Source: Bacteroidales bacterium
GTDB lineage: Bacteria > Bacteroidota > Bacteroidia > Bacteroidales > WCHB1-69
Reading direction: 5' to 3'
Assembly (NCBI GenBank): GCA_016282395.1
Contig: JAEEKL010000150.1
Location: forward strand, 1 to 45,388
DNA length: 45,388 bases
Under the pieces are notes generated by a model, which saw nothing but the letters and a program-made list of their open reading frames with translations, did no database searches and was not told where the DNA came from. The position numbers were made by a program, and so were the translations under genes. Positions 19,928 to 44,735 of this stretch are shown here, in pieces. The first letter of the stretch is position 1. Every line of letters begins with the position of its first letter.

Positions 19928-20839
19928 ATGGCGGACGGCCGACAATGGCAAGGCAAGACTAAAGGCGGGAAATTCGGACAACGTTTCTTACTTTCTTTTC
20001 TGAAACGTTTCCGTGTCACGGCGTTGTACCCCTCGCTTCCATTCATCATCCCCTTCTGCCTTATCTTTGCCCGCAAGCCTAACCGGGCACTGTACCGCTA
20101 TTTTCACGACATCCACAGGTACGGCAGATGGCGTGCCCTGCGCTCCACCGCACGCAACGCATACAATTTCGGGAAAGTGGTGATTGACAAGTTCGCCATC
20201 TGGGCAGGCCGCAGCGACCAGTTCTCCGTTCGGGTGGAGCAACCGGAAATTCCTCAACGACTCTTCGAACAGGAAAAAGGAGTCTTGTTTGCGGGATCCC
20301 ACATCGGAAATTTCGAGCTGCTCGCCACCGCCTTCGAAAAAAATCCCAAGAAAATCAACGTCATCATTTACGGTGGGGAGAGCGAGATGCTCAACCAGCA
20401 AAGAACCTCCGTGTTTGGGGAGAACCATGTCAACCTCATCCCTGTCACGGCAGACATGTCGCACCTCTTCACCATCAAAAACGCTCTTGAGAACGGCGAG
20501 GTGGTGGCCATCCTGTGCGACCGCCTTTTCGGCAGCCCGAAAAAGAAAACCCTTGATTTTTTAGGGCATCCGGCTGACTTTCCCATCGGACCGTTCCGAC
20601 TGGCCGCACAAATGGACGTGCCCGTGCTTTCCGTTGCCGTGATGAAGGAGAAAGGACTGTGTTACTCTTGCCACACAACCTTGTTGAACGTGGAACCCAG
20701 CCTTACAACAAGCCAAAAATGCGACATCTTGATAGAACAATATGTGAAAAGCCTTGAAAATGTGCTCCTACAATACCCCGAGCAATGGTTCAACCTTTAT
20801 GATTTTTGGAATCTGGAAAATAATCACAACAGAAAATAA
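19928..20839 (+). CDS. LpxL/HtrB-family (lipid A late acyltransferase-like) acyltransferase
   Basis: 'FAGSHIGNFEL' (Hx4E-type motif) and 'YPEQWFNLYDFW' at the C-terminus, both typical of the family. Confidence 0.75.
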   Translation: MADGRQWQGKTKGGKFGQRFLLSFLKRFRVTALYPSLPFIIPFCLIFARKPNRALYRYFHDIHRYGRWRALRSTARNAYNFGKVVIDKFAIWAGRSDQFSVRVEQPEIPQRLFEQEKGVLFAGSHIGNFELLATAFEKNPKKINVIIYGGESEMLNQQRTSVFGENHVNLIPVTADMSHLFTIKNALENGEVVAILCDRLFGSPKKKTLDFLGHPADFPIGPFRLAAQMDVPVLSVAVMKEKGLCYSCHTTLLNVEPSLTTSQKCDILIEQYVKSLENVLLQYPEQWFNLYDFWNLENNHNRK

Positions 20840-20856
20840 CTCAAAATACAATCACT

Positions 20857-21945
20857 ATGAAATTAAAATCTCCGCAAAAGGAAATATACGCCAAAGAACA
20901 CCACTCTGCTTTACAAGCACAACGTTTAGCACAGGAGATCGCCTTTGGACCCATTGTGTTCCAAGTTTCACGACTGATGGTCAAGTTCGGCATTTTCGAG
21001 ATGTTGAACGAACACAAAGACGGCTTGACCATGACAGAAATCGCCAATGCCACAAAACTGTCGCTATACGGCACAAAAGTCCTGCTGGAATCTTCTTTGA
21101 CCATCGGCACTATCCTTCTGCATGACGATCGTTTCTTTCTCTCCAAGACCGGCTGGTTTCTGCTCAACGACGAGTCAGTACGCGTGAACATGGATTTCAA
21201 CCATGATGTGAACTATCTCGGCATGTTCCGTTTGGAGGAGTCATTGCTCAACGGCAAACCTGAAGGATTGAAAGTGTTCGGAGACTGGCCGACCGTGTAT
21301 GAAGGGTTGTCGAAACTGCCGCCGCAAGTGCAGAAAAGTTGGTTCGGCTTTGACCATTTCTATTCGGACAATTCTTTCGCGCAAGCATTGGAAATCGTGT
21401 TCAAGAATCATCCCAAGACACTGTTGGACGTTGGGGGCAACACTGGACGCTGGGCCATGCAGTGCGTGAAACACGATGCCGACGTACATGTCACCATCAT
21501 GGACCTGCCACAGCAGTTAGCCATGATGCGCGAGCAAACCAAAGGTCTGGAGGGAGCCGACAGGATCCATGGCCACGGTTGCAACCTGCTCGACCGTACC
21601 ATACCGTTCCCCACAGGGTTTGACGCCATTTGGATGAGCCAATTTTTGGATTGTTTCTCGGAGGAGGAGGTGACCAGCATTCTCACCCGTGCCGCCAAGT
21701 CCATGGACACACAGAGCAAACTGTACATCATGGAAACTTTTTGGGATCTCCAACGCTTCGAAACAGCCTCCTATTGTCTTGCTCAAACCAGCATCTATTT
21801 CACCGCCATCGCCAATGGCAACAGCAAAATGTACTATTCCGGCGACATGGCCCGCTGCGTGGAAGAGGCTGGGTTGAAAATTGATGTGCTACACGAAAAT
21901 CTGGGTGTCGGAGGGCATAGTATCATGGAATGTAGTGTTAAATAA
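20857..21945 (+). CDS. SAM-dependent O-methyltransferase (family 2-like, with an N-terminal dimerisation/wHTH region)
   Basis: SAM motif I 'LLDVGGNTGRWA', 362 aa. Confidence 0.8.
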   Translation: MKLKSPQKEIYAKEHHSALQAQRLAQEIAFGPIVFQVSRLMVKFGIFEMLNEHKDGLTMTEIANATKLSLYGTKVLLESSLTIGTILLHDDRFFLSKTGWFLLNDESVRVNMDFNHDVNYLGMFRLEESLLNGKPEGLKVFGDWPTVYEGLSKLPPQVQKSWFGFDHFYSDNSFAQALEIVFKNHPKTLLDVGGNTGRWAMQCVKHDADVHVTIMDLPQQLAMMREQTKGLEGADRIHGHGCNLLDRTIPFPTGFDAIWMSQFLDCFSEEEVTSILTRAAKSMDTQSKLYIMETFWDLQRFETASYCLAQTSIYFTAIANGNSKMYYSGDMARCVEEAGLKIDVLHENLGVGGHSIMECSVK

Positions 21946-21953
21946 TCGCCCTC

Positions 21954-22370
21954 ATGTTTCCTACACCTGCACTTCCATACATCCCTCAACGTCCACCATT
22001 TGTACTGGTTGACAATCTGTTATCTTGCAACGAGGAAGAGGTTGTGACCGACTTTCACATCCCGCCGGATCACATTTTGGTGGAAAACGGCTATTTGTCA
22101 GAAGCGGGCCTGATCGAAAACGTCGCGCAAACCTGTGCCGCCCGCATCGGATGGGTTAACCGCAACAAACCTATCCCCATTGGCGTGATTGGAGCCGTCA
22201 ACAACTTCGAACACACGACCCTCCCAGCGGCTGGCGAAACCATAACAACTACCGTCACTGTCATTTCCGCCGTTTTTGAAGCCCTCGTTGTTCATGCGGA
22301 AACCCAATGCAACGGGCAACCCGTCGCACATTGCGACATGAAGGTCTTTGTTCGGACAACTAACAGTTAA
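21954..22370 (+). CDS. Hotdog-fold dehydratase-like protein (ApeP-like)
   Basis: 'LPYIPQRPPFVLVD' N-terminus, shared with the paralogue at 27088. 138 aa. Confidence 0.7.
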   Translation: MFPTPALPYIPQRPPFVLVDNLLSCNEEEVVTDFHIPPDHILVENGYLSEAGLIENVAQTCAARIGWVNRNKPIPIGVIGAVNNFEHTTLPAAGETITTTVTVISAVFEALVVHAETQCNGQPVAHCDMKVFVRTTNS

Positions 22371-22380
22371 AACGTAAAAA

Positions 22381-22818
22381 ATGGCAGACAAAATATTGCA
22401 AGTTGAGAAAGAGGTGGATGTCCGTTTCAGCGAAGTGGATTCCATGGGGTTTGTATGGCATGGTAACTACGCCTTATATTTTGAAGATGCCAGAGAACTC
22501 TTCGGGCAGACCTATCAGCTTGAATATCTCCGCATGTACGAGTTAGGAGTTTACGCGCCGCTGGTGGAATTAAAATTCAACTACAAGAAAGCCGTACACT
22601 ACCAAAGCAGAATAAAAGTCAAATGCACCTATCGGAACACAGATTCCGCCAAAATCGTGTTCGACTACGAAATCCGCGATGCGAAAACCGATGAAATAAT
22701 GGTAACCGGCCACACCGTGCAGGTGTTCCTTGACCGCAATTACAACCTGATCTGGCAAGTACCTGATTTCTATAAAGATATAAAGAGTGGAAGAGCATCA
22801 ACGGGATTCTCTAATTAG
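22381..22818 (+). CDS. 4-hydroxybenzoyl-CoA thioesterase/YbgC-family acyl thioesterase (ApeK-like)
   Basis: 'VRFSEVDSMGFVWHGNYALYFEDAR', a hotdog thioesterase signature. Confidence 0.8.
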   Translation: MADKILQVEKEVDVRFSEVDSMGFVWHGNYALYFEDARELFGQTYQLEYLRMYELGVYAPLVELKFNYKKAVHYQSRIKVKCTYRNTDSAKIVFDYEIRDAKTDEIMVTGHTVQVFLDRNYNLIWQVPDFYKDIKSGRASTGFSN

Positions 22819-22857
22819 AGCCATACCTTCCACTTGTCGAACTTACTGCTTTTTTTG

Positions 22858-22865
22858 TATATTTG
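22858..22865 (+). promoter_or_regulatory. Internal -7 box TAtaTTTG upstream of the second ketosynthase
   Basis: Exact TAnnTTTG match in the 65-nt gap after the thioesterase gene. Confidence 0.45.
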
Positions 22866-22904
22866 CGCCTTATTCTAAAATAGGTGGTTTATACACGTAA
22901 GTAT

Positions 22905-24680
22905 ATGATTTACAGCATTGGAGACAGCATCATTTCCCCTCTTGCCATGACCAGTCGTGGTAATTTTGAGGCAGTGCTTCGCGGAGAAAGCCGTCTTCAA
23001 TATTATGAGCATGCTTTCGGCCTGCCGGAGCCCTGTTTTATTTCACTCTTTGAAGAGGAACGTCTCAACAATACGTTCAGTGCCTTGGTTGATTTTGGCA
23101 TCGAGGGATACACCAAGATGGAGAAAGCCGCCATAGTCGCCGCCAGCCAAGCCATCGAAGAGGCCAACATCGCCGCAGACCGCGACAATGTCATCTTCAT
23201 CCTCTCCACCACCAAAGGGAACGTCGATTTGCTGGAGCACAACCCTTACGAGCCCGAGCGACCCTACCTGTGGCGTTCCGCGCAGATTATCGCGGAGTTT
23301 TTCGACAACCCCAACACCCCGATCGTGGTCAGCAACGCCTGCATTTCCGGATGTGCCGCACAGATAGCCGCCGCCAACCAACTCCGTTTTGGTGGCTACA
23401 AGTATGCTGTGGTCATCGGCGCAGAGACACTCTCCAAGTTCATCATTTCCGGATTCCAGTCGTTCAAAGCCCTTTCCAAGGAGCGTTGCATGCCTTTTGA
23501 TGCCAACCGAAAGGGGCTCAATTTAGGGGAGGCTGCCGCCGCCATCGTCTATACCATCGGCGACGAAAGTACCACCCTGCCCGACGACACGTTGATTCTA
23601 CGCGCCGGGGCCATCAACAATGATGCGAACCACATTTCCGGACCGTCACGCACGGGCGAGGGACTGTTGCGCGCCATCAACAGGGTGCTGCAAGGCCATG
23701 ACCCTGCGCAAATCGCCTTCCTAAATGCACATGGCACCGCCACCCCATATAACGACGACATGGAATCGGTGGCCATCACCCGCGCCAATCTCCAAGACAC
23801 GCCCGTCAACAGTCTGAAAGGTTATTTCGGACATACACTGGGCGCCGCCGGCGTGCTGGAAACCATCATGGCCCACCAGGCCGTCAAAAACCATACGGTT
23901 ATCGGCACGTTGGGCACCGTCAACCCGGGCACGGCCAACAAGGTCAATGTCACCTTGCAAAACCAACCGACAAACGGCAATGCATTCATGAAACTGATTT
24001 CCGGTTTCGGTGGCAGCAACGCCGCGTTATTGTTGGAAAACAGCAATAAATCTACCATACCCGCCGTAGAGACGCATAATTATGCGTCTCTACAACCACA
24101 ATCGACGAGACGTGCGAGTCTCTCATGTGTTTCCTCATGCCACATCACCAACGACAACGTCACGGTGAACGGGGAGACCCTGATCACCCGCAAGGAGCAA
24201 TGCGGGAACTGGTTGTCGGACATCTACCATGCCATCGGAATGCAATACCCCAAATTTTTCAAGATGGACAACCTGTGCAAGGCCGGCACGCTTGCGGCGG
24301 AAATCCTGCTACGCAATGTGGACTTTGACCGCGAAGCCGTCAAACCCGACTGGGCGGTGGTGCTGATGAACAGTGCTTCATCGTTAGACGACGACCGCCA
24401 CTACCAGACCACCATCCAAGACGCGGACAACTACTATCCAAGCCCTGCGGTGTTCGTCTATACCTTGGCCAACATCGTCACCGGAGAGATTGCCATCCGC
24501 CACAAACTCGGCGGGGAGAGTTCCTTTTACGTGTTCACGACTTTTTCTGAAGAATCAGTACAACAAATTGTACGTCAAACCTTTGATGCCAATCCAGAGT
24601 TCACTCACATCCTCTGCGGATGGGTGGATTACGATGCGGGGAATTGTGATGTGCGGATGAGGCTTTATAAGGTTGGATGA
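22905..24680 (+). CDS. Ketosynthase fused to a ~185-aa C-terminal accessory domain, with a palindromic element in the linker
   Basis: KS triad 'SNACISGCAAQ', 'LNAHGTATPYND', 'GYFGHTLGAAG'. The KS ends at 'GFGGSNAALLLEN'. The C-terminal part begins around 24125. I preferred ATG 22905 (MIYSIGD) over GTG 22884. Confidence 0.85.
   Translation: MIYSIGDSIISPLAMTSRGNFEAVLRGESRLQYYEHAFGLPEPCFISLFEEERLNNTFSALVDFGIEGYTKMEKAAIVAASQAIEEANIAADRDNVIFILSTTKGNVDLLEHNPYEPERPYLWRSAQIIAEFFDNPNTPIVVSNACISGCAAQIAAANQLRFGGYKYAVVIGAETLSKFIISGFQSFKALSKERCMPFDANRKGLNLGEAAAAIVYTIGDESTTLPDDTLILRAGAINNDANHISGPSRTGEGLLRAINRVLQGHDPAQIAFLNAHGTATPYNDDMESVAITRANLQDTPVNSLKGYFGHTLGAAGVLETIMAHQAVKNHTVIGTLGTVNPGTANKVNVTLQNQPTNGNAFMKLISGFGGSNAALLLENSNKSTIPAVETHNYASLQPQSTRRASLSCVSSCHITNDNVTVNGETLITRKEQCGNWLSDIYHAIGMQYPKFFKMDNLCKAGTLAAEILLRNVDFDREAVKPDWAVVLMNSASSLDDDRHYQTTIQDADNYYPSPAVFVYTLANIVTGEIAIRHKLGGESSFYVFTTFSEESVQQIVRQTFDANPEFTHILCGWVDYDAGNCDVRMRLYKVG
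24066..24093. repeat. Perfect 28-bp palindrome gtagagacgcataattatgcgtctctac (palindromic element, copy 3), in-frame inside a CDS
   Basis: Perfect self-complementarity. It translates as 'VETHNYASLQ'. A second small inverted repeat, gagac-N6-gtctc, lies at 24107-24122. Confidence 0.85.
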
Positions 24681-24763
24681 GGAGAGGAGATGAAATAGAG
24701 ATGCGGCTAAACAATCCTGATTATGAATTAAAATCGAAAATATATTGCAAAAAATTTAAGAAT

Positions 24764-25021
24764 ATGGACGAATTGATTTTAGAACTGAAAAAAGAAATTA
24801 TCGAAGTGTTGAATCTGGAGGGAATGACCCCTGCTGACATTGACGAGAACGCACCCTTGTTCGGCGAAGGTCTCGGACTGGATTCCATCGACGCTCTGGA
24901 ACTGATAGTGCTGATGGAGAAGAACTACGGCATCAAATTGGCCAACGCCGATGAAGGCAAGGAGATCTTCAAATCCGTCAAGGTGATGGCTGAATACATC
25001 AAAGAGCATCGGACAAAATAG
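24764..25021 (+). CDS. Acyl carrier protein 2
   Basis: 'LGLDSIDALELIVLMEKNYG'. I chose ATG 24764 (MDELILELKK) to give the usual ACP length of 85 aa. Confidence 0.85.
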   Translation: MDELILELKKEIIEVLNLEGMTPADIDENAPLFGEGLGLDSIDALELIVLMEKNYGIKLANADEGKEIFKSVKVMAEYIKEHRTK

Positions 25022-25050: not shown

Positions 25051-25797
25051 ATGGAGTCCGTCCTTCAGATCAGGCAACTGGTCAAGCGATACCACGGCAT
25101 GGATCATCCCGTACTCCAGGGGTTGGATATGACCATACTTCCTGGCGAGCGGTACGGATTTCTCGGACCTAACGGCACCGGCAAAACCACCACTGTGAGC
25201 ATCTTGTCGGGCCTTTTAGTTCCGGATTCCGGGGAGGTGTTTGTCTTGGGCAACAGCATGCCAGACAAACGCAAGCAGGTCACCACACAAATCGGAGTGG
25301 TGCCGCAAAACATTGCCCTCTTCCCCGAACTCACCGCGCTGGAGAACCTCCGTATCTTCGGTTCCCTGTACCCGATAACCTCCGCCCGCCTGAAGCAGCG
25401 CATCCACCAGCTTTTAGAGCTGTACGGTCTTACCGCTTTCGCCCGGAAACCCGTCAAGACGTTTTCCGGCGGCATGAAACGGAGCCTCAACATCATCGCC
25501 GGCATCCTGCACGAGCCGAAGTTCCTGCTGTTAGACGAGCCTACAGTGGGCATTGACGTGCAGACCAAAGCGCTTATTTTAGACAATCTCCGGCAGCTCA
25601 ACGAAGAGGGTACTACCATCTTGTACACCTCCCACGATATGGACGAGGCACAACACTTCTGCACCCGCGTTGGCATCATCGACCACGGGAAGCTGATTGC
25701 GGAAGACACTCCCGCCGCCCTGATCCAGTCTTGTCCGGACTGTAGCAATTTGGAGTCCGTTTATCTGCATCTCACAGGAAAATCCTTACGAAATTAG
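25051..25797 (+). CDS. ABC transporter ATP-binding protein
   Basis: Walker A 'GPNGTGKTT', signature 'FSGGMKRSL', Walker B 'LLLDEPT'. Confidence 0.92.
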   Translation: MESVLQIRQLVKRYHGMDHPVLQGLDMTILPGERYGFLGPNGTGKTTTVSILSGLLVPDSGEVFVLGNSMPDKRKQVTTQIGVVPQNIALFPELTALENLRIFGSLYPITSARLKQRIHQLLELYGLTAFARKPVKTFSGGMKRSLNIIAGILHEPKFLLLDEPTVGIDVQTKALILDNLRQLNEEGTTILYTSHDMDEAQHFCTRVGIIDHGKLIAEDTPAALIQSCPDCSNLESVYLHLTGKSLRN

Positions 25798-25801: not shown

Positions 25802-27091
25802 ATGTCCAAATTCACAGCCCTACTTTATAAAGATTTTCTGCTGCTACTCCGTGACAAAGCGGGGCTGCTTTTCATGTTCCTGATGCCCATGGCATTGGTG
25901 CTGGTGATGACCGGCATGCAGGAAGGCGCGTTCAGCAGCCATGCGGACAAACACATCGCCCTGATCATCGACGACCAGGACAAGGACACGGTGGGCGTGA
26001 CCATCACCCGGAAACTGCAACAGGAGAGTCTTTTCGACGTGACCGTGGCCAACGACGCAGAGAAAGGGATGACAGAGGAACGACTGAAAGAGCTGGTGAC
26101 ACAGGGCAAATACCTTATCGGCATCTACATTCCTGACAGCACCACACTTCGCATCCGTGACAATGCCGCCAACGCTATCGAAGACGCCCTCCCCCACCCT
26201 CAAAACGACGATTCAACCGACAGCACAGACACCGTAACGGAAACGCAAATCCGCATCTACATCGACCCCACCACGGAGCGCTCGTTCCGCCAAATACTTT
26301 CGGGCCACATACGGCTGGCCTCTTTGCAGGTGGAACACGACATCATCTTGGACGAAATCTCCAGTGCCCTGTGCAAGGCCACCCGGCAGGAAGAGGGCTC
26401 TGTTGATCTGTCGGACACCCAAAACATTGACTTACAGGAAATCATCGCTGGCGACGACACGCAAAACAGCATGTTCAACGCTGCCGTCCACAATGTACCG
26501 GCCTGGACGCTGTTCGCCATTTTCTTCATCGTCATCTCCTTTTCAGGAAATCTCATCAAAGAAAGACAGGACGGCAGTTTCGCACGTCTGATGACCACTC
26601 CCTGTTCCTACTTCATCTATCTGACCAGCAAGCTGGCCGTCTATCTAACCGTTTGCCTGCTGCAATTCTTCCTGATTGTCGCCATGGGCATCTGGCTGTT
26701 CCCCGTTGTCGGGTTGCCGGAGTTCTCCATGGCCGGGCATTTGGGATATTGCTTGATTGTGGTCGTCTGCGCCGCTTTGGCCGCCATCGGTTTCGGCATG
26801 ATAATCAGCACATTTGCCACCACACACCAGCAGGCTGCCACCTTCGGGGCCGTGGCCGTCGTCATCCTCTCCGCCATCGGCGGCATCTGGGTGCCCACCT
26901 TCCTGATGCCTAAATTCCTGAATGCCCTCAGCAAGGTTTCCCCGCTGAACTGGGGCATTGAGGCATTTTATGACATCCTCCTCCGAGGGAAAGGTCCACA
27001 AGCCTTCATGCCTAAATGTGCATTGCTGTTGACCTTTGCCTTAATTTGTTTCACAATCGCTGTTTTATCCAAGAAAAAAGAGCTCAAATGA
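25802..27091 (+). CDS. ABC-2 type transporter permease
   Basis: An N-terminal TM segment, a large extracytoplasmic loop, and a C-terminal bundle of about 5 TM segments. It lies 4 nt after the ATPase gene. Confidence 0.85.
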   Translation: MSKFTALLYKDFLLLLRDKAGLLFMFLMPMALVLVMTGMQEGAFSSHADKHIALIIDDQDKDTVGVTITRKLQQESLFDVTVANDAEKGMTEERLKELVTQGKYLIGIYIPDSTTLRIRDNAANAIEDALPHPQNDDSTDSTDTVTETQIRIYIDPTTERSFRQILSGHIRLASLQVEHDIILDEISSALCKATRQEEGSVDLSDTQNIDLQEIIAGDDTQNSMFNAAVHNVPAWTLFAIFFIVISFSGNLIKERQDGSFARLMTTPCSYFIYLTSKLAVYLTVCLLQFFLIVAMGIWLFPVVGLPEFSMAGHLGYCLIVVVCAALAAIGFGMIISTFATTHQQAATFGAVAVVILSAIGGIWVPTFLMPKFLNALSKVSPLNWGIEAFYDILLRGKGPQAFMPKCALLLTFALICFTIAVLSKKKELK

Positions 27092-27540
27092 ACCTCATAC
27101 CCGACCAGCCCATCCTGACTGGAGACCAGATTCTCCCGTACATTCCCCAACGTCCGCCCATGGTGTTTGTGGACACTTTTTATGGGTTGATTGACAACGC
27201 TCTATACTCCTCTCTGCTCGTCACGCCCGACATGGTGTTTGTGGAAGACGGCAAATTACTGGATATCGGGCTGATCGAGTTCCTCACCCAGTCGGGATAT
27301 GTATGGTTCTCCTACCGCGAGAAAGTCATCTTGCAAAAAGGCGACCTGGAAATCACCAAAGGGTACCTTTGCAAAATCAAAAATGTCCATGTATCCGATA
27401 CACCGTCTATCGGAACACGCATCTACTCAAGAATGGATGTTATCTTTTTTTCTTCCTCCTTCAGTACCATCCACATGACCGCCTACACGGAGGACGGCAC
27501 GCTGGCGGAAGGCGATTTTGATGTAATTTCTTTAAATTGA
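27088..27540 (+). CDS. Hotdog-fold dehydratase-like protein (paralogue of 21954..22370)
   Basis: 'ILPYIPQRPPMVFVD'. The ATG overlaps the permease stop (ATGA). The ORF-track start at 27016 lies inside the permease gene. Confidence 0.65.
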   Translation: MNLIPDQPILTGDQILPYIPQRPPMVFVDTFYGLIDNALYSSLLVTPDMVFVEDGKLLDIGLIEFLTQSGYVWFSYREKVILQKGDLEITKGYLCKIKNVHVSDTPSIGTRIYSRMDVIFFSSSFSTIHMTAYTEDGTLAEGDFDVISLN

Positions 27541-27543: not shown

Positions 27544-27936
27544 ATGCTGCTAAAAGACGACCTGTATCAAATCATAGATTCTGAAAAATCAGAAGATTCC
27601 AGCACCTACACCCTGCTGATTTCCGAGACTTCCCCTCTATTCAAGGGGCATTTCCCGGGAAATCCCGTATTGCCTGGTGTATGCATCTTACAGATATTCA
27701 AAGAACTGGCTGAAACAGATCTGGCAATTGAACAGCCTATCATGTATGATGAAATCAAGCATTGCAAATTTCACCTACCCATTGCCATGAACAAGCCCTT
27801 CAAAGCCAAAGTCTCCCTCTCTTTGAAACAGGACGGGAATTTCTGGAATCTGTCCGCCTCCTTGAAAAACGACGCGGCCATTTTCACCACCTTAAAAGCA
27901 GTTCTTACAACCATAAAACAAGACATCCATGATTGA
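27544..27936 (+). CDS. FabA/FabZ-like 3-hydroxyacyl-ACP dehydratase
   Basis: 'FKGHFPGNPVLPGVCILQ', a catalytic His motif. Confidence 0.8.
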   Translation: MLLKDDLYQIIDSEKSEDSSTYTLLISETSPLFKGHFPGNPVLPGVCILQIFKELAETDLAIEQPIMYDEIKHCKFHLPIAMNKPFKAKVSLSLKQDGNFWNLSASLKNDAAIFTTLKAVLTTIKQDIHD

Positions 27937-37500: not shown

Positions 37501-38099
37501 TCCTTCTGGCCGACAAACTGGGACTGGACATTCTGCCCATTGTCACGCACGGCATCGGTGACATGTTTCCCAAACACGACACATGCATCCATCGAGGAAT
37601 CGTCACGATTTCCATCCAAAAACGCATACAGCCTGACAATTGTGATTTCAGGAACGGGAAAAGCACATTAGAAACCAGCAGGCTCTTCCGTCATTATTTC
37701 ATTGAAGAATATGCCGCCTTAAAAGAACAATGTGAAGATTGCGATTATCTGAAAGATATCGTTTATCACAACTACATATACAAAGGCCGGGAGGTCGAGC
37801 GTCAATGTCGCAACAAATTTCATCATATCAATACGTTATGTAATCATCTCAAAGAGCTTCCAAAAGCAGGAAAGCTTTTGTACAAGCATTGCGGCAATGG
37901 CGAATTATCCTTGATGACCGCCCTGTTAAGCAAACACATCAAGGTTACTGCGTACGATGCCGACGACAACTGCATCGCTTTGGCATCCCATTGCTTTTCG
38001 GTTCCTGAAAACCTGCACTACACTTCCGAACACCCTGACGAATCACAGTATGACTTCATCATTGACGAACAAACCATCCTTCAGTCTCCAACGAAATAA
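34536..38099 (+). CDS. Trifunctional fusion of an MMPL/RND-like exporter, a PlsC-type lysophospholipid acyltransferase and a degenerate class I methyltransferase-like domain
   Basis: 1187 aa. About 12 TM segments occupy the first ~800 aa. The acyltransferase motifs 'NHQSHFD' (around 37242) and 'FPEGTRS' (around 37443) follow. The C-terminus has 'LLYKHCGNGELS...KVTAYDADDNCIALA'. ATGA overlap with the GT2 gene. Confidence 0.85.
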   Translation: MKSFFIKTYRFFEAKPVMLWTILFVTIGLSVFSASRLHLVEDIGSFLPNSREYKSINEAYQHLGGDNKLIVSIAMTDTTAETDMDLLSSVADEVADKLSEADTTGLIKQLRYQVDDQEVTSVMAFVLENIPYFLSEADYRRMDTLITPEHISLQLAADRQLLASPIPMMRPMVQNDPLFFSSDVLQSLSDFKLDDSYQTDNDHIFNKAGTESQVIVTSNYPLSETRSNGQLIRLIDETIQEVARQHDGKVHISCFGASQVSLTNSRQIKKDSFIAIGLSLLLIITLLYYYYRNSRSILMILVSISFGALFALGLLSLIKNPVSVIAIGVASIILGIAINYPIHFLSHFKRTDDKEQILKDIVNPLLIGNITTVGAFLSLLFISSDAMKDLGLFSALLLAGTILFVLIFLPHLIGKHFQGTNRDLAFRRVAEFRFENIPGIFWVIVALTVVFYVFSSRTTFDTDMHHINYMTKEQQAAFDKLRAESDTSVHTIYAIAEGGTLDEALSRQELLLCALTRSDSVYPSAIVRYSGIGRFFPSQETQRQRLEQWNTFWEGKREVFCANLDQAARLNGFNPEAFAPCKENILRTYTIQDNSFFQPIREPLASNYVFQAEDKVIVYNILKVKKENSDNIVNFLNRTAPTGAFAFTDTSIASLLVNALSNDFNYVLYICGFIVFAFLLFSFGRVEISLMAFLPLFIAWIWILGIMGITGIRFNIVNIILATFIFGMGDDYSIFVTEGLLHERAYGRKMLAQFKNSIILSATIMFISIGMLIFAKHPAMRSLAEVTIIGMFSVVLMAYIVPPVVFKWLTTRKGKPRRQPVTLGSLFRSAIGFPYFFGGVLVMSVGGLIWLKIGKRNDANKLKYHTLLQKLLYSTARTIPKSSFTITNPFSETFEKPAVIISNHQSHFDLMYLLMLHPKIIALTNDWAWNTPLYKRIVRNADFLPASYGMDSNFPKIQQMVDKGYSVLVFPEGTRSFDQNILRFHQGAFLLADKLGLDILPIVTHGIGDMFPKHDTCIHRGIVTISIQKRIQPDNCDFRNGKSTLETSRLFRHYFIEEYAALKEQCEDCDYLKDIVYHNYIYKGREVERQCRNKFHHINTLCNHLKELPKAGKLLYKHCGNGELSLMTALLSKHIKVTAYDADDNCIALASHCFSVPENLHYTSEHPDESQYDFIIDEQTILQSPTK

Positions 38100-38108: not shown

Positions 38109-39608
38109 ATGTCCAACAACAAATACGATATCGCCATACTTGGCACTGGTTTGGGAGGGTTAGTCTGCGGCTACATCCTCAGCAAAAACGGCTACAAGGT
38201 TCTTCTGTTAGAAAAAAACGCCCAAATCGGTGGTTGTCTGCAGACGTTCAAGCGTTTCGGCGTGAAATTCGACACAGGGATGCACTATATCGGCAGCATG
38301 CTGGAAGGCCAGATTCTTCATCGGCTTTTCTCCTATTTGAAATTAGCCGAAGCGGTCCCCATTAGCCAGTTAGACAAAAACGGATATGACGTTTTTTCCA
38401 TCAATGGGCAAACCTACCGCTATGCGTCCGGCTATGAGCAGTTCACCGAGGCACTATGCGAGAGCTTCCCAAACAACAGCAAAGACATCCGACGGTACGT
38501 TCAGCAGTTGAGGGAAATCGCCAGCGCATCGCCACTATACAACCTGCGTAAAGTGGAAGACAACGTGTTCATTGAGGCGGACTATATCAAGACCAGCATC
38601 AATGACTTTATCGCCTCTATCACGGACAACACCACACTGCAAAACGTTCTGGCCGGCAACCTGCCCTTGTATGCCGGTGTCAAGGACAAAACCCCGACAT
38701 ACATTCACGCACTCATCAACAATTTCTACATACAGAGTGCGTGGCGCATCATCGGGGGCAGCGACACCATTGCCGCCGCCCTTGCCCGGCACATCCGCGA
38801 TTTTGGCGGGGAAATCCGCACCAACAGCGAAATTTGCGAGATTGTATGCAACGATGAGAAAGCCACAGGTGTGACACTGAAAAACGGAGAGCAGGTGGAG
38901 GCTGATTATTTCATCTCCAATATTCATCCTCAGGCCACCATCAACATGATTCACTCCCATCTCATCAGAAAAGTCTATCGGACCCGCATCCTCAACCTGG
39001 AGAACACCATATCCAATTTCACCGTGTATATCAAATTCAAGGAACGGGCGACACCCTACCTCAACTACAATTACTATTTCTACGAGAACGAAGATGTATG
39101 GACGGCCAACAACCGACGAAAAGGCGACCCGTTGAAAAGCTATCTTTTCATGCACCAATGTGCCGAGAACCACCAACAGTGGGCGCAAAGTGCCGAGATG
39201 ATAGGCTACATGCACTTTGACGAGGTGAGCCAATGGGCAGACACTCGCGTCGGACATAGAGGCGACGACTACACAGCCTTCAAACGAGCCACCGCCGAGC
39301 ACTATCTCGACGTGTTGGAGCAATCCTTCCCTGGCATACGGTCTGCCATCGAGGGGTATGAGACCTCCTCTCCTCTCACCTACCGCGACTACACAGCCAC
39401 CAAAGACGGCTCCATGTATGGCATTATCCGCGACAAGAGCTTCCCCACGCAAACACTCGTTTCGCAGCGTACGAAAATCCCCAACCTCTTCTTGACAGGG
39501 CAGAACATCAACTCGCACGGCATTCTGGGGGTGACCATCGGTGCCGCCCTCACCTGCGCCGAATTTCTGGGACTGAATAAAATCATCGAAGAGATTGAAA
39601 ACGAATGA
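38109..39608 (+). CDS. FAD/NAD(P)-dependent oxidoreductase, phytoene desaturase (CrtI)-family
   Basis: 'DIAILGTGLGGLVCGYILSKNGYKVLLLEKN' dinucleotide fold, 499 aa. Confidence 0.85.
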   Translation: MSNNKYDIAILGTGLGGLVCGYILSKNGYKVLLLEKNAQIGGCLQTFKRFGVKFDTGMHYIGSMLEGQILHRLFSYLKLAEAVPISQLDKNGYDVFSINGQTYRYASGYEQFTEALCESFPNNSKDIRRYVQQLREIASASPLYNLRKVEDNVFIEADYIKTSINDFIASITDNTTLQNVLAGNLPLYAGVKDKTPTYIHALINNFYIQSAWRIIGGSDTIAAALARHIRDFGGEIRTNSEICEIVCNDEKATGVTLKNGEQVEADYFISNIHPQATINMIHSHLIRKVYRTRILNLENTISNFTVYIKFKERATPYLNYNYYFYENEDVWTANNRRKGDPLKSYLFMHQCAENHQQWAQSAEMIGYMHFDEVSQWADTRVGHRGDDYTAFKRATAEHYLDVLEQSFPGIRSAIEGYETSSPLTYRDYTATKDGSMYGIIRDKSFPTQTLVSQRTKIPNLFLTGQNINSHGILGVTIGAALTCAEFLGLNKIIEEIENE

Positions 39609-39618
39609 TGTTTTTTTC

Positions 39619-39626: not shown

Positions 39627-39670
39627 CACTTTTAAATTTTCACCTAAAACATAATCATAAATTTATCGAC

Positions 39671-39705: not shown

Positions 39706-39708
39706 AAT

Positions 39709-40998
39709 ATGAAACTGAAACTCATCTATCCAAAATGGAAAAAGTTACCTGGGCAAACAACCTTTAACCTGCCGCCACACGGCCCTGTAGTCTTTGCCGC
39801 CACCCTGCCCGAATACGTTGATGTATCTTTCACGGATGAGAACGTGGAAGAGGTGGACATGGATGAGGCGTGTGATGTGGTGGCCATCTCCATGATGCTG
39901 ACCACACAGGTGAAACGGGGCTGGGCCATCGCCGACGCATATCGTGCCAAAGGCATCCCTGTGATGTTCGGCGGCATCTCCACCATGCTGCACGCCGAGG
40001 AGACCCTACAGCACGCCGACAGTATTTTCTTAGGCGAGTCGGAAGGCCGCCAAGAGCAGGTCTTCCAAGACTTACAGAACGGTTGCCTCAAGAAAGTATA
40101 TAACTACATGGGGCACCAGCCCGACATCAATTTGGTGGGGCCGGCGCGCCGCGACCTGTACAAACGAGAGCTTTACAACCACAAGGGAGTGCAGATGGTG
40201 GATCTTTTCCACGCTTCACGAGGCTGCCGCTTCAGCTGCTACCCCTGCGCCGTGTCATACTTGGGAGGGCGCTGCTTCCGCCCCCGCCCCATCGACAAGA
40301 CCATCGCCGACTTGGAAAGCATCGACAACAACCGTCTCTTCATCGTGGACAACTCCTTGGCACAGAACAAGCAATGGGAAATGGACCTCTTCCGCGAGAT
40401 GATTCCCCTGAAGAAAAAATGGATCAGCCATACCATCGAAGACGACCCGGAAGTGCTGGATCTCGCCGCACAAGCCGGTGCATGGTACGTCTATCAGGCC
40501 GTATATGACACCTCCGACTACATCAAGGAGCGCGTGAAACGCTACCACGACTACGGCATCGGCGTGGAGGGCACCATCCTGTTCGGATTGGACAACCAGA
40601 CTGAAGACGACATCCTGCGCCTCATCGACTTCCTGCTGAAGATAGACCTCGATTTGGCCGAGTTCACCATCCTGGCACCGTTCCCGCACACCAAAGCCTA
40701 CGACGACCTCATGCGGCAGGGCCGTATCTTCGACCACGACTGGGACCATTACAACGCCGGCCAAGTGGTTTACCAACCCAAGCACATGACCCCGGAGCGC
40801 CTGCAGGAACTTTACGAATACGCCTGGAGTGCCTTCTACCACGATGAGACCCAAGAGGAGAAAATGTTCAAGCTCTTCACCAAGGTCATGCTCCGCGAGA
40901 TGGAAGACGGCACCTACCGTCCCCGCGACCGCAAACTCGCCAACAAGAGCTTCGGCAAGGACGTGGACCGTTCCAAGAGCCATTTCAACGAATTTTAG
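39709..40998 (+). CDS. B12-binding-domain radical SAM enzyme (class B)
   Basis: CX3CX2C cluster motif in 'ASRGCRFSCYPCAV', preceded by an N-terminal Rossmann-like B12-binding region ('DVVAISMMLTTQ...GIPVMFGG'). Confidence 0.85.
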   Translation: MKLKLIYPKWKKLPGQTTFNLPPHGPVVFAATLPEYVDVSFTDENVEEVDMDEACDVVAISMMLTTQVKRGWAIADAYRAKGIPVMFGGISTMLHAEETLQHADSIFLGESEGRQEQVFQDLQNGCLKKVYNYMGHQPDINLVGPARRDLYKRELYNHKGVQMVDLFHASRGCRFSCYPCAVSYLGGRCFRPRPIDKTIADLESIDNNRLFIVDNSLAQNKQWEMDLFREMIPLKKKWISHTIEDDPEVLDLAAQAGAWYVYQAVYDTSDYIKERVKRYHDYGIGVEGTILFGLDNQTEDDILRLIDFLLKIDLDLAEFTILAPFPHTKAYDDLMRQGRIFDHDWDHYNAGQVVYQPKHMTPERLQELYEYAWSAFYHDETQEEKMFKLFTKVMLREMEDGTYRPRDRKLANKSFGKDVDRSKSHFNEF

Positions 40999-41045
40999 CT
41001 GTTGGCTGTTTCAATCATATAACGTATAAAATACAAGAAACATAC

Positions 41046-41417
41046 ATGAAAGTACCCGAAAAATATTACGATGAGATTTTCCCATTTGCAGGACAATGGG
41101 ATATGCCCAGCGCATGTGGTCTGAAGATCATCCATAAAAACGGTAAAACCTATATCATCACAACAGAATTGTATCAGGAGAATCCCGGCACCTCCATCAC
41201 GTATGCGGGCGGATCGCTGATCAAACAGATTTGCGAGCAGAAAAAACTCGACATGCAATCCATCATCTACATCGAATGCAATCCGAACACCAATTCCAAA
41301 CTCTCTTTTTACGACGAAGAGATGTTTGAAGTGTCGTACGACATTGTGGATAACATGCCGACAAACCTCTCATACCGCCAGCTCAGCAAAGAAGAGATCC
41401 AAAACATTGTGGAATAA
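41046..41417 (+). CDS. Hypothetical protein (123 aa, no motif recognised)
   Basis: Clean ORF with coding-like composition, on the same strand and tightly spaced with its neighbours. Confidence 0.5.
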   Translation: MKVPEKYYDEIFPFAGQWDMPSACGLKIIHKNGKTYIITTELYQENPGTSITYAGGSLIKQICEQKKLDMQSIIYIECNPNTNSKLSFYDEEMFEVSYDIVDNMPTNLSYRQLSKEEIQNIVE

Positions 41418-41429
41418 TGCTGTGGAATA

Positions 41430-42290
41430 ATGCGAAGAATACTACACTTCCTATTCTGTCTGCTTCTGGTTTTAGCGGTCAGTGCACAGCCAAAGCCGGT
41501 CAAGTTATGGAAAGATGTGCCGGGCATGAAGTCACAGCCCACGAAACTGTATATCTATCCCGCTGACAAGAGCAACAACACCGGCACGGCTGTTGTAATC
41601 TTCCCCGGGGGAAGTTACAGTCACACTATGGGCATCGCCACCGAAGGTTTCGGTGTGGCCGAGTGGCTTAACAAACAGGGAATCAATGCTTTCGTGGTAA
41701 AATACCGCACCGGCAACCGGGGCTATCATCATCCCGCCATGATTGAGGATGCGCAGTACGCCATCCATTACGTGCGCCAACATGCCAAGGAGTACGGAAT
41801 TGACCCCAACAAAGTGGGCGCAATGGGCTTCTCCGCAGGCGGACATCTTGTCACCATGACCGGCGTTTTTTCCAAAGACAACTATCTCTCCAAATTGGGT
41901 ATCAATGACCAAACCTCCCTGAAGCCTGACTTCGTGGTGCCCGTCTATCCGGTGGTCTCCATGAAAGATGGCGTCGCACATAAACGCTCACGCAAAAACC
42001 TGCTGACCAAGCACTACACACCAGAACAACAGACCAAATTCTCCATGGAACTGAGCATTCCGCCAGACATGCCGCCCGTGTTCCTCGTAACGGCCAAGGA
42101 CGACCCGGTGGTGAAATACGAAAACAGCGTGCTGCTGGACCGCAGTCTCAGCAAGGCACGCATTCCACATAAGTTCCTACTCTATGAGACCGGCGGCCAC
42201 GGCTATGGCATGGACGAGAAACTCGCCCCTGAAGCCGGAAAATGGAAGTACGATTTCATAAAATGGCTGAAAGAGATCAAAATATTATAA
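41430..42290 (+). CDS. Secreted alpha/beta hydrolase (esterase/lipase-type)
   Basis: Signal peptide 'LLLVLAVSAQ', oxyanion 'IFPGGSY', nucleophile elbow 'GFSAGGH'. Confidence 0.8.
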   Translation: MRRILHFLFCLLLVLAVSAQPKPVKLWKDVPGMKSQPTKLYIYPADKSNNTGTAVVIFPGGSYSHTMGIATEGFGVAEWLNKQGINAFVVKYRTGNRGYHHPAMIEDAQYAIHYVRQHAKEYGIDPNKVGAMGFSAGGHLVTMTGVFSKDNYLSKLGINDQTSLKPDFVVPVYPVVSMKDGVAHKRSRKNLLTKHYTPEQQTKFSMELSIPPDMPPVFLVTAKDDPVVKYENSVLLDRSLSKARIPHKFLLYETGGHGYGMDEKLAPEAGKWKYDFIKWLKEIKIL

Positions 42291-42309
42291 TCCAATTTAC
42301 CTTTTCAAC

Positions 42310-43614
42310 ATGAACTTCATCCCTGAAATAGAATTCCAACCCAAAGCAGTCATCAAAGCTTTTCAAGAAAAAAAAATGAAGGAACAATTAGCTTATCTCA
42401 AGGCCAATTCTCCTTATTACCAGAAACTTTTCAATGATTTCAACATTGATATTGACAAATTCGAAAAACTTGAGGACTTGCAACACATCCCGTTTACAGA
42501 CAAGAAGGACTTACAGCTGCACAATTGGGATTTTCTGTGCGTCCCAAAGGAAAGAATCATCGATTTCATCACAACATCGGGCACCTTAGGCGACCCTGTG
42601 ACCTTCGCCTGCACAGACCGTGATTTGGAACGTCTTGCGTACAACGAAGCCGTATCGTTCACCTGTGCTGGACTGACTTCCAGCAGCGTGCTACAGCTGA
42701 TGACCACCATCGACAAACGCTTCATGGCAGGACTGGCCTATTTCCTCGGTCTCAGGAAGATGGGTGCCGGTGTCATTCGCGTGGGCAATGGCATCCCCGA
42801 ACTGCAATGGGACACCATTGAGCGCATCAAACCCGACACGGTAATGTGCATCCCCTCATTTATCCTCCGCCTTATCGAATACGCGGAAGAGAACGGCATT
42901 GAGTACCGGAAGTCATCCATCCGACGGATTATCGGTATTGGCGAGGGTCTTCGCGACCAAAACTTCGAGCTGAACTCATTAGGCCGGAAGATCAAAGAAA
43001 AATGGGATGTGGACCTGTTCGCCACTTATTCCTCCACGGAGATGTCAGCCACCTTTTCGGAATGCGAATACGGCTGTGGCGGCCACCACCATCCGGAGCT
43101 TTTGATTGTGGAGATAATCGGCGAGGATGACAAGCCCGTGCCTGAGGGCGAAGTGGGCGAGGTGGTCATCACCACCTTGGGCGTGGAAGGAATGCCCCTG
43201 CTCCGCTTCCGCACCGGTGATATGGCTTGCATACATCCGGAACCTTGCCGATGCGGAAGACAGACATTCCGCATCAGTCCCATTGTAGGCCGCAAGAACC
43301 ACATGATCAAGTACAAGGGCACCACCCTCTACCCGCCCGCCATGACCGAGGTGCTGACCAACGCAAATTACGTGGAGAACTACTACATCACAATCGGCAC
43401 CAACGAGACCACCGAAACCGATGATGTCACCATCACCATAGGATTGCGGCAAGAGCCAGATTTCGATGTGATTAAGGATTTGAAAGACCGTTTCCGCGCC
43501 AAAATCCGTGTCGCACCGCAAATCATCATCGCCCCCGTCGAAGAGGTCCGCAAAGTGAACTTCCCCGCAATGAGCCGCAAACCCGTCACTTTCATCGACA
43601 ACCGCAAACACTAA
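42310..43614 (+). CDS. Adenylate-forming enzyme of the phenylacetate-CoA ligase (PaaK)/F390 synthetase family
   Basis: 'TTSGTLGDPV' AMP-binding core, 'YSSTEM', 'FRTGD', 434 aa. Confidence 0.8.
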   Translation: MNFIPEIEFQPKAVIKAFQEKKMKEQLAYLKANSPYYQKLFNDFNIDIDKFEKLEDLQHIPFTDKKDLQLHNWDFLCVPKERIIDFITTSGTLGDPVTFACTDRDLERLAYNEAVSFTCAGLTSSSVLQLMTTIDKRFMAGLAYFLGLRKMGAGVIRVGNGIPELQWDTIERIKPDTVMCIPSFILRLIEYAEENGIEYRKSSIRRIIGIGEGLRDQNFELNSLGRKIKEKWDVDLFATYSSTEMSATFSECEYGCGGHHHPELLIVEIIGEDDKPVPEGEVGEVVITTLGVEGMPLLRFRTGDMACIHPEPCRCGRQTFRISPIVGRKNHMIKYKGTTLYPPAMTEVLTNANYVENYYITIGTNETTETDDVTITIGLRQEPDFDVIKDLKDRFRAKIRVAPQIIIAPVEEVRKVNFPAMSRKPVTFIDNRKH

Positions 43615-43625
43615 ACCACACAGCA

Positions 43626-44735
43626 ATGTTCGAAGAAACCCGCCCCTATTACGACCATGAGATTCCCGCTGCCATTGCGCGAGTTGGCGCGAACCCTTTT
43701 TTCCCTTCCATTGTGAAATATCTGTTTCCCGAAGCGGACATTAATACATTCAAAGAGAATTTTTCCAAAATCAAAACCATTGATGAATTCCAAACCAATG
43801 TGATGCTGAAAGCCATCTGGCGCATTGTGCATAAAAGTTGTACAACGTTCACCTGGGAAGGATTTGACCGATTGGACGACCACCATCGCTACATGTTCAT
43901 CGCCAATCACCGGGATATTCTGCTGGATGCAGCACTCCTGCAAATTGTCTTGAATGCAAATCATATCCAAACATCGGAAATCACCTTTGGAAACAACCTG
44001 ATGCAAGGCGACCTCGTCATTGACATAGGCAAAATGAACAAGATGTTCCGGATTGTACGGGGCGGCACCGTGCATGATTTCTACCGCAATTCCATGGAAG
44101 TGTCCTCTTACATGCGCTACGCTTTGCTGGAAAAAAGGGAATCAGTGTGGATTGCCCAACGCAACGGACGCACCAAGGACGGGAATGACCAGACAGAAAG
44201 CGCAGTACTGAAGATGTTTTCCATCAGCAGTCCAAAACCGTTTGTGGAGAATCTCAGTGAGCTTAACATAACACCAGTGGTCATTTCATACGAGTATGAA
44301 CCCTGCGACTTCATGAAGACGCAGGAGTTATACATTTCCAAATACCAACAATACATCAAGGAACCGGGTGAGGACCTGCGAAGCATATTGCAAGGCATCA
44401 CCCAATTCAAAGGCCATGTACATCTTGCGGTAACCCCCACCATCACCAAAGAGGAGCTCTACGAATGCGACAAACAAGAAAAAAACATGAAATTTTCCAG
44501 TCTTGCCGCCATCATCGACCAGCGCATTCACAATCATTACAAAATATGGAACAACAACTACATAGCTTATGATATATTAAACAACACGCAGCGATATTCG
44601 AAACGCTACACCTCTGATGAAAAGGAGACGTTTATAAGCTATATGGAAAACGGACTTAAAGGCCTCCGCGGTGAGGCCGACGAGCTTCAGAACCTGTTTC
44701 TGAAGATTTACGCCGGTCCTGTCCGGGAGCAATAA
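43626..44735 (+). CDS. Glycerolipid/lysophospholipid acyltransferase-family protein
   Basis: 'FIANHRDILLDAALL' (an HXnD-type motif) and 'WIAQRNGRTKDG', 369 aa. Confidence 0.7.
   Translation: MFEETRPYYDHEIPAAIARVGANPFFPSIVKYLFPEADINTFKENFSKIKTIDEFQTNVMLKAIWRIVHKSCTTFTWEGFDRLDDHHRYMFIANHRDILLDAALLQIVLNANHIQTSEITFGNNLMQGDLVIDIGKMNKMFRIVRGGTVHDFYRNSMEVSSYMRYALLEKRESVWIAQRNGRTKDGNDQTESAVLKMFSISSPKPFVENLSELNITPVVISYEYEPCDFMKTQELYISKYQQYIKEPGEDLRSILQGITQFKGHVHLAVTPTITKEELYECDKQEKNMKFSSLAAIIDQRIHNHYKIWNNNYIAYDILNNTQRYSKRYTSDEKETFISYMENGLKGLRGEADELQNLFLKIYAGPVREQ

Follow-up and report, generated by a model that had tools for sequence, protein, structure and literature searches.

A flexirubin-type aryl-polyene cluster with two divergent DarH-like proteins and no dialkylresorcinol genes in a ruminant-gut Bacteroidales bacterium

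Flexirubins usually carry their aryl polyene as an ester of a dialkylresorcinol (DAR), and the locus described here raises the question of what the polyene is joined to in a lineage that has the starter chemistry of these pigments without the genes for the resorcinol. The locus lies in a stretch of 45,388 bp, called the window throughout, which is the whole of contig C208 and the longest contig of the 2.5-Mb metagenome-assembled genome (G000, 68.7% complete) of an uncultured ruminant-gut Bacteroidales bacterium. Positions 16134-44735 form a single plus-strand array of 28 genes, which is one complete flexirubin-type aryl-polyene cluster kept by selection. To our knowledge, the step that joins polyene and anchor is undefined even in model strains. 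An earlier reading of the sequence, here called the original prediction, had noticed a tyrosine-derived starter and no DAR genes, and had proposed that several acyltransferases stand in place of the latter, making the cluster a hybrid between flexirubin and aryl-polyene-lipid systems. The explanation of the whole that we favour, with moderate confidence, is a DAR-less, tyrosine-primed pathway in which two DarH-like proteins would transfer the chain to a non-resorcinol nucleophile and a core of genes shared with other clusters would build or export the pigment lipid.

Absence of the resorcinol arm

FlxA (16134-17666), a tyrosine ammonia-lyase (TAL) providing the 4-coumarate starter, scores 803 bits against the NCBIfam model NF053541 (cut-off 700), matches PF00221 with E=3e-155 and carries the 4-methylideneimidazol-5-one (MIO) triad ASG at residue 139. 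FlxY (42310-43614), of the 4-coumarate-CoA ligase type, reaches 693 bits with NF053551 (cut-off 520), the FlxJ-family methyltransferase (20857-21945) 620 bits with NF053543 (cut-off 560), and LolA2 (32744-33376), a flexirubin-type periplasmic carrier with a signal peptide, 157 bits with NF053544 (cut-off 125). All four exceed their curated cut-offs, and the flexirubin-type TAL starter of the original prediction stands. The broader features of the aryl-polyene family are present as well: a type II polyketide synthase (PKS)-like ketosynthase (KS) and chain-length factor (CLF), a ketoreductase (KR), paired hot-dog dehydratases (DH) and dedicated acyl carrier proteins (ACPs), together with an LPLAT/LpxL-type acyltransferase, a GT2 glycosyltransferase, an RND/MMPL exporter and a LolA-like carrier.

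The arm that makes the resorcinol is missing. As predicted, the cluster has no open reading frame (ORF) of the FabH, or ketoacyl-ACP synthase III (KAS III), type to which DarB belongs; the only matches to ACP_syn_III are below threshold and fall inside proteins of the KS I/II type, which rules out a cryptic DarB among them. In the window's own genome the DarB model (NF053539, cut-off 550) finds nothing above 23-30 bits, and tblastn is negative too. The only FabH/KAS III-like gene of this assembly, on contig C126, was rejected as DarB, since it reaches 30 bits with that model and sits in a polysaccharide locus. There, FabH-, FabG- and FabD-like genes (C126:9750-12017) are found amid a Wzx flippase and sugar-modifying enzymes, a set that appears to supply acyl chains specifically to a glycan.

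Because an incomplete genome cannot prove an absence, relatives were examined. No DarB was found in 35 further species of the genus (G001-G035), among them a congener that is 97% complete with 1% contamination and carries the orthologous cluster (G030). For DarA, the probe was a 358-residue protein that adjoins an above-cut-off DarB in G042, a 99%-complete genome from another family of the same order that served as reference for the canonical cluster; no curated DarA model matched, and the identity of the probe is given by its position. Its homologues, of about 304 residues, directly adjoin DarB in ten of ten further DarB-positive genomes, and neither G000 nor G030 holds a match to it. DarG (NF053536) is likewise absent from both. 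Two small proteins of the cluster, of 130 (27544-27936) and 123 residues (41046-41417), were rejected as divergent DarG by hhalign, with a probability of at most 0.2% (0.15% for the former). The canonical DarG-DarH pair (NF053536 plus NF053550) is therefore not found in the window, DarG being absent and the DarH-like proteins lying below their cut-off and in another clade. A type III PKS as another route to a resorcinol was also rejected: the model finds none in G030 or in G133, a DarB-less genome described below, and in G000 only the C126 gene, at 27.5 bits. DarA, DarB and DarG are truly missing from the lineage, not merely unlinked. With the resorcinol arm absent, the polyene is not esterified to a dialkylresorcinol made by DarA and DarB, and its acceptor is undefined, as had been proposed; the two findings named in advance as refuting this, a darAB pair elsewhere in the genome or a cryptic homologue in the cluster, were both looked for and came out negative.

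That darAB are missing from a cluster would by itself mean little: Chitinophaga pinensis has its darAB (Cpin_6850/6851) at a great distance from flxA-flxY (Cpin_1853-1877) (PMC3992019), and the flx and dar loci are also split in two genomes of the census described below, G141 and G216. In G030, orthologues exist for 26 of 27 query genes at 64-99% amino-acid identity, the 122-residue dehydratase matching at 58%, and the cluster is divided between two contigs (C8:24987-43780 and C18:29517-40261, against 16102-44716 of the window). The outer flanks in G030 are unrelated to those of the window, which sets the borders at 16134 and 44735 and means that no dar genes are hidden past the contig end; darAB just beyond it are ruled out by these flanks together with the DarAB-negative whole G030 genome. 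Among the 36 species of the genus the cluster is present in these two only, a patchy distribution that suggests transfer or repeated loss, and a search of the genome collection with the first DarH-like protein gave G030 as its only match.

Purifying selection acts strongly on every gene tested: between window and G030, the ratio dN/dS is 0.005-0.2 over 24 comparable genes, at a dS of about 1, which rules out a decaying cluster. DNA nearly identical to that of the window is present in gut metagenomes (sheep, bovine and other) of at least nine studies, and in three bovine-gut metatranscriptomes short contigs with 0-1 mismatch fall on the ABC permease and on both DarH-like genes, a weak indication of transcription.

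The shared core and the two DarH-like proteins

The acyl-transfer genes listed by the original prediction, as well as its two BtrH-like proteins and its GT2, all lie at the positions it gave and are confirmed by Pfam matches and catalytic motifs. The LpxL/HtrB-like acyltransferase (19928-20839; dN/dS 0.09) matches PF03279 with 53.7 bits (cut-off 22.3) and has the HX4E motif HIGNFE at residue 125. The MMPL/RND exporter (34536-38099; 1187 residues, PF03176) is fused to a PlsC domain (PF01553 at residues 895-1003, about nucleotides 37218-37545) with the motifs NHQSHFD and PEGTR, followed by a small C-terminal region. The GT2 (33754-34539; PF00535) resembles polyprenyl-phosphate sugar transferases, with AglJ/PpgS-like matches under cut-off. 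A further acyltransferase of the PlsC superfamily, of 369 residues (43626-44735; dN/dS 0.02), matches PF01553 weakly (18.9 bits, cut-off 23), has the motif NHRDILLD, and has homologues that carry PF01553 in precomputed annotation.

What does not hold is the idea that such enzymes take the place of DarA and DarB. The canonical cluster of G042 combines DarA, DarB (569 bits), DarG and DarH (466 bits) at one locus with homologues of the LpxL-like acyltransferase, the GT2, the MMPL-PlsC fusion (full-length, 31% identity), LolA and the CrtD-like enzyme (in two copies), besides FlxA and FlxY. As these genes occur alongside DarA, DarB, DarG and DarH, they are a shared core and not substitutes for the resorcinol, and the set does not mark a special hybrid of flexirubin and aryl-polyene-lipid chemistry either. 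Published flexirubin and arcuflavin clusters (Chitinophaga, Azoarcus) list the same conserved genes, for which a role in export was suggested (PMC3992019, PMC3949708). The flexirubin clusters of Flavobacterium johnsoniae UW101 (Fjoh_1080-1110) and C. pinensis DSM 2588 share with the window the FlxA/FlxY starter, FlxJ, the KS/CLF-KR-DH-ACP set, LpxL-like and PlsC acyltransferases, GT2, LolA and the MMPL exporter (PMC3992019). Unlike them, the window has no DarA, DarB or DarG in its lineage, no C45-type acyltransferase and no polysaccharide deacetylase; its DarH-like gene is duplicated, below cut-off and of a separate clade, and it has an extra B12-binding radical S-adenosylmethionine (SAM) enzyme, the conserved 123-residue protein and the 369-residue acyltransferase.

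Clusters without a resorcinol arm are common in nature. Bacteroidetes aryl-polyene clusters were counted as flexirubin-type by Kumagai et al. (2018) only if proteins for synthesis of the DAR moiety were present, and TAL-primed clusters without darAB have already been discussed for marine Flavobacteriia (PMC5932025). In a census of 400 high-quality Bacteroidota genomes, FlxA was above cut-off in 22, of which 18 have DarB and four (G133, G336, G149 and G137) do not. Like the published DAR-less clusters (PMC5932025), these four resemble the window in having a FlxA/HAL-type starter and core genes without darAB. Homologues of the LpxL-like acyltransferase occur in all four and in G042, and those of the GT2 in G042 and DAR-less clusters; G133, G336 and G149, where the cluster is fully covered (in G137 it is covered in part), retain the LpxL-like acyltransferase, GT2, LolA and the exporter. 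Neither DarH nor an ABC transporter was found within 80 kb around FlxA in any of the four, whereas the window keeps both the ABC-2 transporter and the DarH-like genes and adds further genes at its end.

A second census, of 400 high-quality genomes of the order, started from DarH, which was above cut-off in 65; DarB is present in 44 and missing from 21, so that DarH is not tied to the resorcinol. Nine of these 21 were examined (loci L068-L076, that is, G548, G502, G600, G656, G741, G816, G487, G607 and G477), and their flexirubin-type clusters have DarG-DarH either once or in tandem (DarG-DarH-DarG-DarH), together with an ABC-2 transporter and a 452-residue B12 radical SAM enzyme. The first six resemble the window in their core, ABC-2 transporter, one or two DarH and a B12 radical SAM enzyme; unlike in the window, DarH is above cut-off and paired with DarG, and the radical SAM enzyme is dissimilar and stands elsewhere in the cluster. 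It lies between the LpxL-like acyltransferase and a dehydratase in all nine (e.g., L069:5547-6908), is absent from the G042 cluster and has no tblastn match to the enzyme of the window at E<=1e-5. In many of the 21 genomes the DarG-DarH pair is a tandem duplicate, and a second tier of DarH-like genes, at 310-335 bits, is found at separate loci in many Bacteroidales genomes. Our literature search found no paper on DAR-less clusters that contain DarH.

The two DarH-like genes of the window (27929-28975 and 29006-30049) encode proteins with BtrH_N and DUF4872 domains that score 264 and 246 bits against NF053550, below its 300-bit cut-off. Their mutual identity is 56%, against 34-35% with the canonical DarH of G042. 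A maximum-likelihood tree gathers the canonical DarH proteins in one clade (support 100/99); nine of its ten members have DarG adjoining and DarB within 20 kb, and the tenth (G058) has DarG and no true DarB. The pair of the window, that of G030 and tandem arrays of 2-5 paralogues from metagenomes form a separate clade, also with 100/99 support, and among 400 sampled species of the order none has a protein in the score range of this window-type clade. Cys13, His131 and Asp147 are conserved across both clades and in outgroup proteins from Paenibacillus: all three are invariant in an alignment of 34 sequences; in one of 41 sequences this still holds for Cys13 and His131, and Asp147 is kept in at least 90%. 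Fixed differences between the clades are found at positions 7, 9, 109, 130 and 295, of which 7, 9 and 130 adjoin the catalytic Cys or His in sequence. Both copies evolve under constraint, with dN/dS of 0.07 and 0.04.

According to the AlphaFold2 model of the first protein (pLDDT 93.5), the DarH-like proteins have the CtaG/CcbD fold of the BtrH family with its Cys-His-Asp triad. The full-length Foldseek matches are AziU2/U3, CcbD and CtaG (E=1e-9 to 1e-7, TM about 0.6); the similarity to C39 peptidase domains of ABC exporters is confined to the N-terminal half (E=1e-4 to 1e-2), and sequence searches of the PDB with this protein, as with the 369-residue acyltransferase, gave nothing useful. CtaG, BtrH and AsbE are papain-like ping-pong transacylases, which move an acyl group from a carrier protein to a catalytic Cys and then to an amine, the triad of CtaG being C11/H128/D144 (PMC12865890); CtaG mutant entries C11A, H128A and D144N are at positions close to Cys13, His131 and Asp147. 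CtaG, BtrH, AsbE and CcbD share with the DarH-like proteins the N-terminal papain-like domain, the C-terminal helical domain and the triad (PMC12865890), at a sequence identity of only 11-15% to the solved CtaG-type structures. In antibiotic and siderophore pathways, the members known so far join acyl groups to amines as amides, whereas the donor of the DarH-like proteins would be a polyenoyl-ACP.

The DarH-like proteins have no signal peptide, two ACPs are encoded nearby, and an ABC-2 transporter (here ATPase 25051-25797, PF00005, and permease 25802-27091, PF12698) adjoins DarH in every examined cluster with a DarH or DarH-like gene. The simplest reading is that these proteins off-load an ACP-bound chain onto an acceptor, which in canonical clusters could be the resorcinol hydroxyl and in the window must be something else. 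That they load the starter instead is unlikely, since FlxA/FlxY clusters without any DarH exist.

The tail module, the proposed route and its rivals

What sets the window apart is thus the two divergent DarH-like genes together with the B12 radical SAM enzyme, the 123-residue protein and the 369-residue acyltransferase. The last three, with an alpha/beta hydrolase and FlxY, make up what is called here the tail module. The radical SAM enzyme (39709-40998; motif CRFSCYPC, weak PF02310/PF04055 matches, TIGR04013/TIGR04072-like) is 98.6% identical between window and G030, and its dN/dS of 0.013 is undercut only by ACP2. The 123-residue protein matches no family; it is conserved in G030 and on one further contig (L053), with three invariant cysteines, and its model (pLDDT 66) has no Foldseek match with E below 0.03. 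The 369-residue acyltransferase, one of a very large 'acyltransferase' family of Bacteroidales, has a 37%-identical paralogue on contig C256 of the same genome, between uvrB and an ORF whose start looks glycosyltransferase-like by eye; it is a cluster-specific paralogue of a gene in a housekeeping context.

The window-type DarH-like clade recurs on ruminant-gut contigs. Six loci (L051-L056) have 2-5 tandem copies, all next to an ABC-2 transporter. L053 has the whole tail module, with a radical SAM enzyme 82% and a 123-residue protein 61% identical to those of the window, and L053, L055 and L056 also carry FlxY and the 369-residue acyltransferase; L051 and L052 have two DarH-like copies and no tail module in the stretch examined. 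The radical SAM enzyme of this type is found only in window-type clusters, and it, the 123-residue protein and the 369-residue acyltransferase are absent from the G042 cluster and from DarH-less clusters. The lack of DarG, DarA and DarB beside this clade was established in the two genomes that could be searched, G000 and G030, and none of the three was seen on the contigs examined. Directly 3' of the DarH-like arrays, on two contig lineages, lies a gene for the glycerol-3-phosphate dehydrogenase GpsA (L053:14202-15212, L054:5686-6696, L055/L056:12093-13097), which may be mere shared synteny or a hint of a glycerol-phosphate acceptor and is not used here as evidence.

The donor, the acceptor, the order of steps and the product of the route that follows are what we infer from these observations. 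FlxA would convert tyrosine to 4-coumarate and FlxY would activate this to 4-coumaroyl-CoA, which the type II PKS-like KS/CLF, KR, DH and ACP proteins would elongate and FlxJ would methylate. By the most likely route, the two DarH-like transacylases, presumed cytoplasmic, would accept the acyl chain of the ACP on Cys13 and pass it to a non-resorcinol nucleophile. The core (LpxL-like acyltransferase, PlsC-MMPL, GT2, LolA2 and ABC-2 transporter) would then build a membrane-anchored pigment lipid or export it to the outer membrane, and the tail module (radical SAM enzyme, 123-residue protein, hydrolase and 369-residue acyltransferase), travelling with the DarH-like clade, probably makes or tailors the acceptor.

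The product is most likely a membrane-anchored pigment lipid, by analogy with its nearest chemical precedent, the Xenorhabdus aryl-polyene lipid. This is an aryl-polyene-GalNAc-phosphate-diacylglycerol, for which ApeD (acyltransferase), ApeJ (glycosyl/acyltransferase) and, in export, ApeM and ApeL are named (10.1101/2020.12.19.423268). The ape clusters of Xenorhabdus doucetiae and Escherichia coli CFT073 share with the window two ACPs, paired dehydratases (in the window weakly ApeI- and ApeP-like), a glycerolipid acyltransferase, a GT2, an RND/MMPL exporter and a LolA-like protein (10.1101/2020.12.19.423268; PMC8253772). Their starter is of the 4-hydroxyphenyl type, unlike the TAL-derived 4-coumarate of the window, and the structure of the outer-membrane pigment lipid is known for the proteobacterial system only. 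A BtrH-fold transacylase, an ABC-2 transporter and a radical SAM enzyme are not named in the text of the Xenorhabdus preprint (10.1101/2020.12.19.423268), and ape clusters were not searched for them. The lipid-type anchoring of the original prediction is a reasonable model in the light of this lipid.

Several observations weigh against the proposed route. The window's genome is only 69% complete, and the case for absence leans on one 97%-complete congener. The literature search found no biochemical study of DarH or a DarH-like protein, so the NCBIfam name is an annotation; the characterised members of the fold form amides with amine acceptors, and no amine-forming enzyme is evident in the cluster. 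The DAR-less clusters of G133, G336 and G149 show that the pathway can dispense with DarH, and the two DarH-like copies may act in a side reaction only. LpxL-like, PlsC and GT2 proteins, whose roles in Bacteroidota are putative, are present as well in clusters that make a plain DAR ester. Finally, the evidence for expression is thin, as the transcript contigs are of low depth and may reflect DNA carry-over.

A sizeable share of Bacteroidota clusters has kept the tyrosine-primed polyene machinery and dropped the resorcinol, and the BtrH/CtaG-fold transacylase family persists, and even multiplies, in resorcinol-less clusters, which makes the DarH-like proteins obvious candidates for the joining step. 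Such clusters also offer a clean background for tests of these proteins. As gut metagenomes of cattle and sheep contain the organism time and again, its product may be widespread in the ruminant gut as a membrane lipid, and it could act as an antioxidant, as has been proposed for other aryl polyenes. It is possible, though doubtful at present, that the window-type DarH-like clade, with two copies here and up to five elsewhere, marks a class of aryl-polyene conjugates not yet described, made by anaerobic gut Bacteroidales, in which the transacylases load a polyene or a fatty chain on a non-resorcinol acceptor, perhaps amine- or polyol-bearing, built or tailored by the radical SAM, 123-residue and 369-residue proteins.

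The rival that survives best, unlikely as it is, takes the DarH-like pair and the ABC transporter for leftovers of a lost dar module, or for a function in export or processing only, with the polyene remaining a free acid or ending on a generic lipid anchor made by the core. It gains from G133, G336 and G149, whose FlxA/FlxY clusters keep the core acyltransferases without DarH or the ABC transporter, and from the likeness of the N-terminal DarH-like domain to C39 peptidase domains. The full-length fold matches are, however, transacylases and not peptidase domains, the triad is kept in both copies, both of which are under purifying selection, and other lineages have 2-5 tandem copies of this clade, an expansion not expected of relics.

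Rather improbable, too, is a reading in which the tail module produces a new lipid as dedicated acceptor, in functional replacement of the dialkylresorcinol, and in which one acyl chain is loaded on it by each of the DarH-like paralogues. The module accompanies window-type DarH on L053, the one contig that spans it, and in part on L055 and L056, and is absent from G042 and DarH-less clusters; its radical SAM enzyme is the second most conserved protein by dN/dS, after ACP2, and a different B12 radical SAM enzyme stands in nine of nine DarB-less DarG-DarH clusters examined. All this is purely associative, however, with no chemistry readable from the sequences; FlxY, inside the module, is a core gene, and L051 and L052 have two DarH-like copies with no such module in view. 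Least probable by far is an ordinary flexirubin with the usual dialkylresorcinol ester, its darAB lying in the unassembled third of the genome: the assembly is indeed incomplete, has no recognisable housekeeping fabH apart from the C126 gene, and split loci are documented (PMC3992019) and recur in G141 and G216, but the orthologous cluster of the 97%-complete G030 comes without DarB, a DarA-type protein or DarG, DarB is found in 0 of 35 congeners, and the DarH-like proteins fall outside the canonical clade and under the curated cut-off.

Remaining genes and neighbourhood

The other genes of the cluster are given in their order. FlxA is followed by a short-chain dehydrogenase/reductase (SDR)-type ketoreductase (17668-18396; PF13561/PF00106/KR), the ketosynthase KS1 (18447-19667; PF00109 and PF02801) and ACP1 (19680-19922; PF00550). 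After FlxJ come a hot-dog dehydratase of 138 residues (21954-22370), with a weak FabZ match and a likeness to ApeP at E=0.14, whose orthologues in related clusters are called ApeP-like, and a 4HBT-type thioesterase (22381-22818; PF13279/PF03061). The next ketosynthase (22884-24680; PF00109/PF02801 at residues 78-343) has a C-terminal domain of about 200 residues of unknown function and is followed by ACP2 (24677-25021; PF00550; dN/dS 0.005). Between the ABC-2 transporter and the DarH-like genes lie a 174-residue hot-dog paralogue of the 138-residue dehydratase (27016-27540) and the 130-residue protein rejected above as DarG, an ApeI/FabZ-like dehydratase.

Downstream of the DarH-like pair, a KS-CLF fusion of 768 residues (30073-32379; PF00109/PF02801, with PF13723 at residues 452-585) precedes a small membrane protein of 117 residues (32367-32720), weakly EamA/TMEM234-like, with PF10639 and PF00892 both just under cut-off. 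LolA2 is followed by an ApeI/FabZ-like dehydratase of 122 residues (33386-33754; weak PF22818/PF07977, with a FabZ match), and the exporter by an FAD oxidoreductase of the CrtD/phytoene-desaturase family (38109-39608; PF01593, with crtI family matches). The two ketosynthase fusions are features of the window: in G042 the KS and its partner of about 200 residues are separate genes (390 and 216 residues), and the KS-CLF query matched over its KS half only, with a 357-residue Ketoacyl-synt_2 ORF adjacent, which suggests that KS and CLF are separate there too.

The alpha/beta hydrolase of the tail module (41430-42290; PF20434/PF07859, BD-FAE/esterase-like) adjoins FlxY in the window and in G133, and is also found on L053. 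The place next to FlxY or in its vicinity is taken by a C45-family acyltransferase/hydrolase in G042 (L015:7991-9712), G336 and G149. The window has none, and one accessory enzyme may have been swapped for the other.

Upstream of the cluster, positions 1-16000 of the window are housekeeping in character, with YidC, ParA/ParB, DapB, a signal peptidase and a thioredoxin-like protein. Just before dapB, on the minus strand (9521-10146), a RelE-like ORF of 114 residues (weak PF06296) and an upstream ORF of 94 residues form a possible toxin-antitoxin pair.

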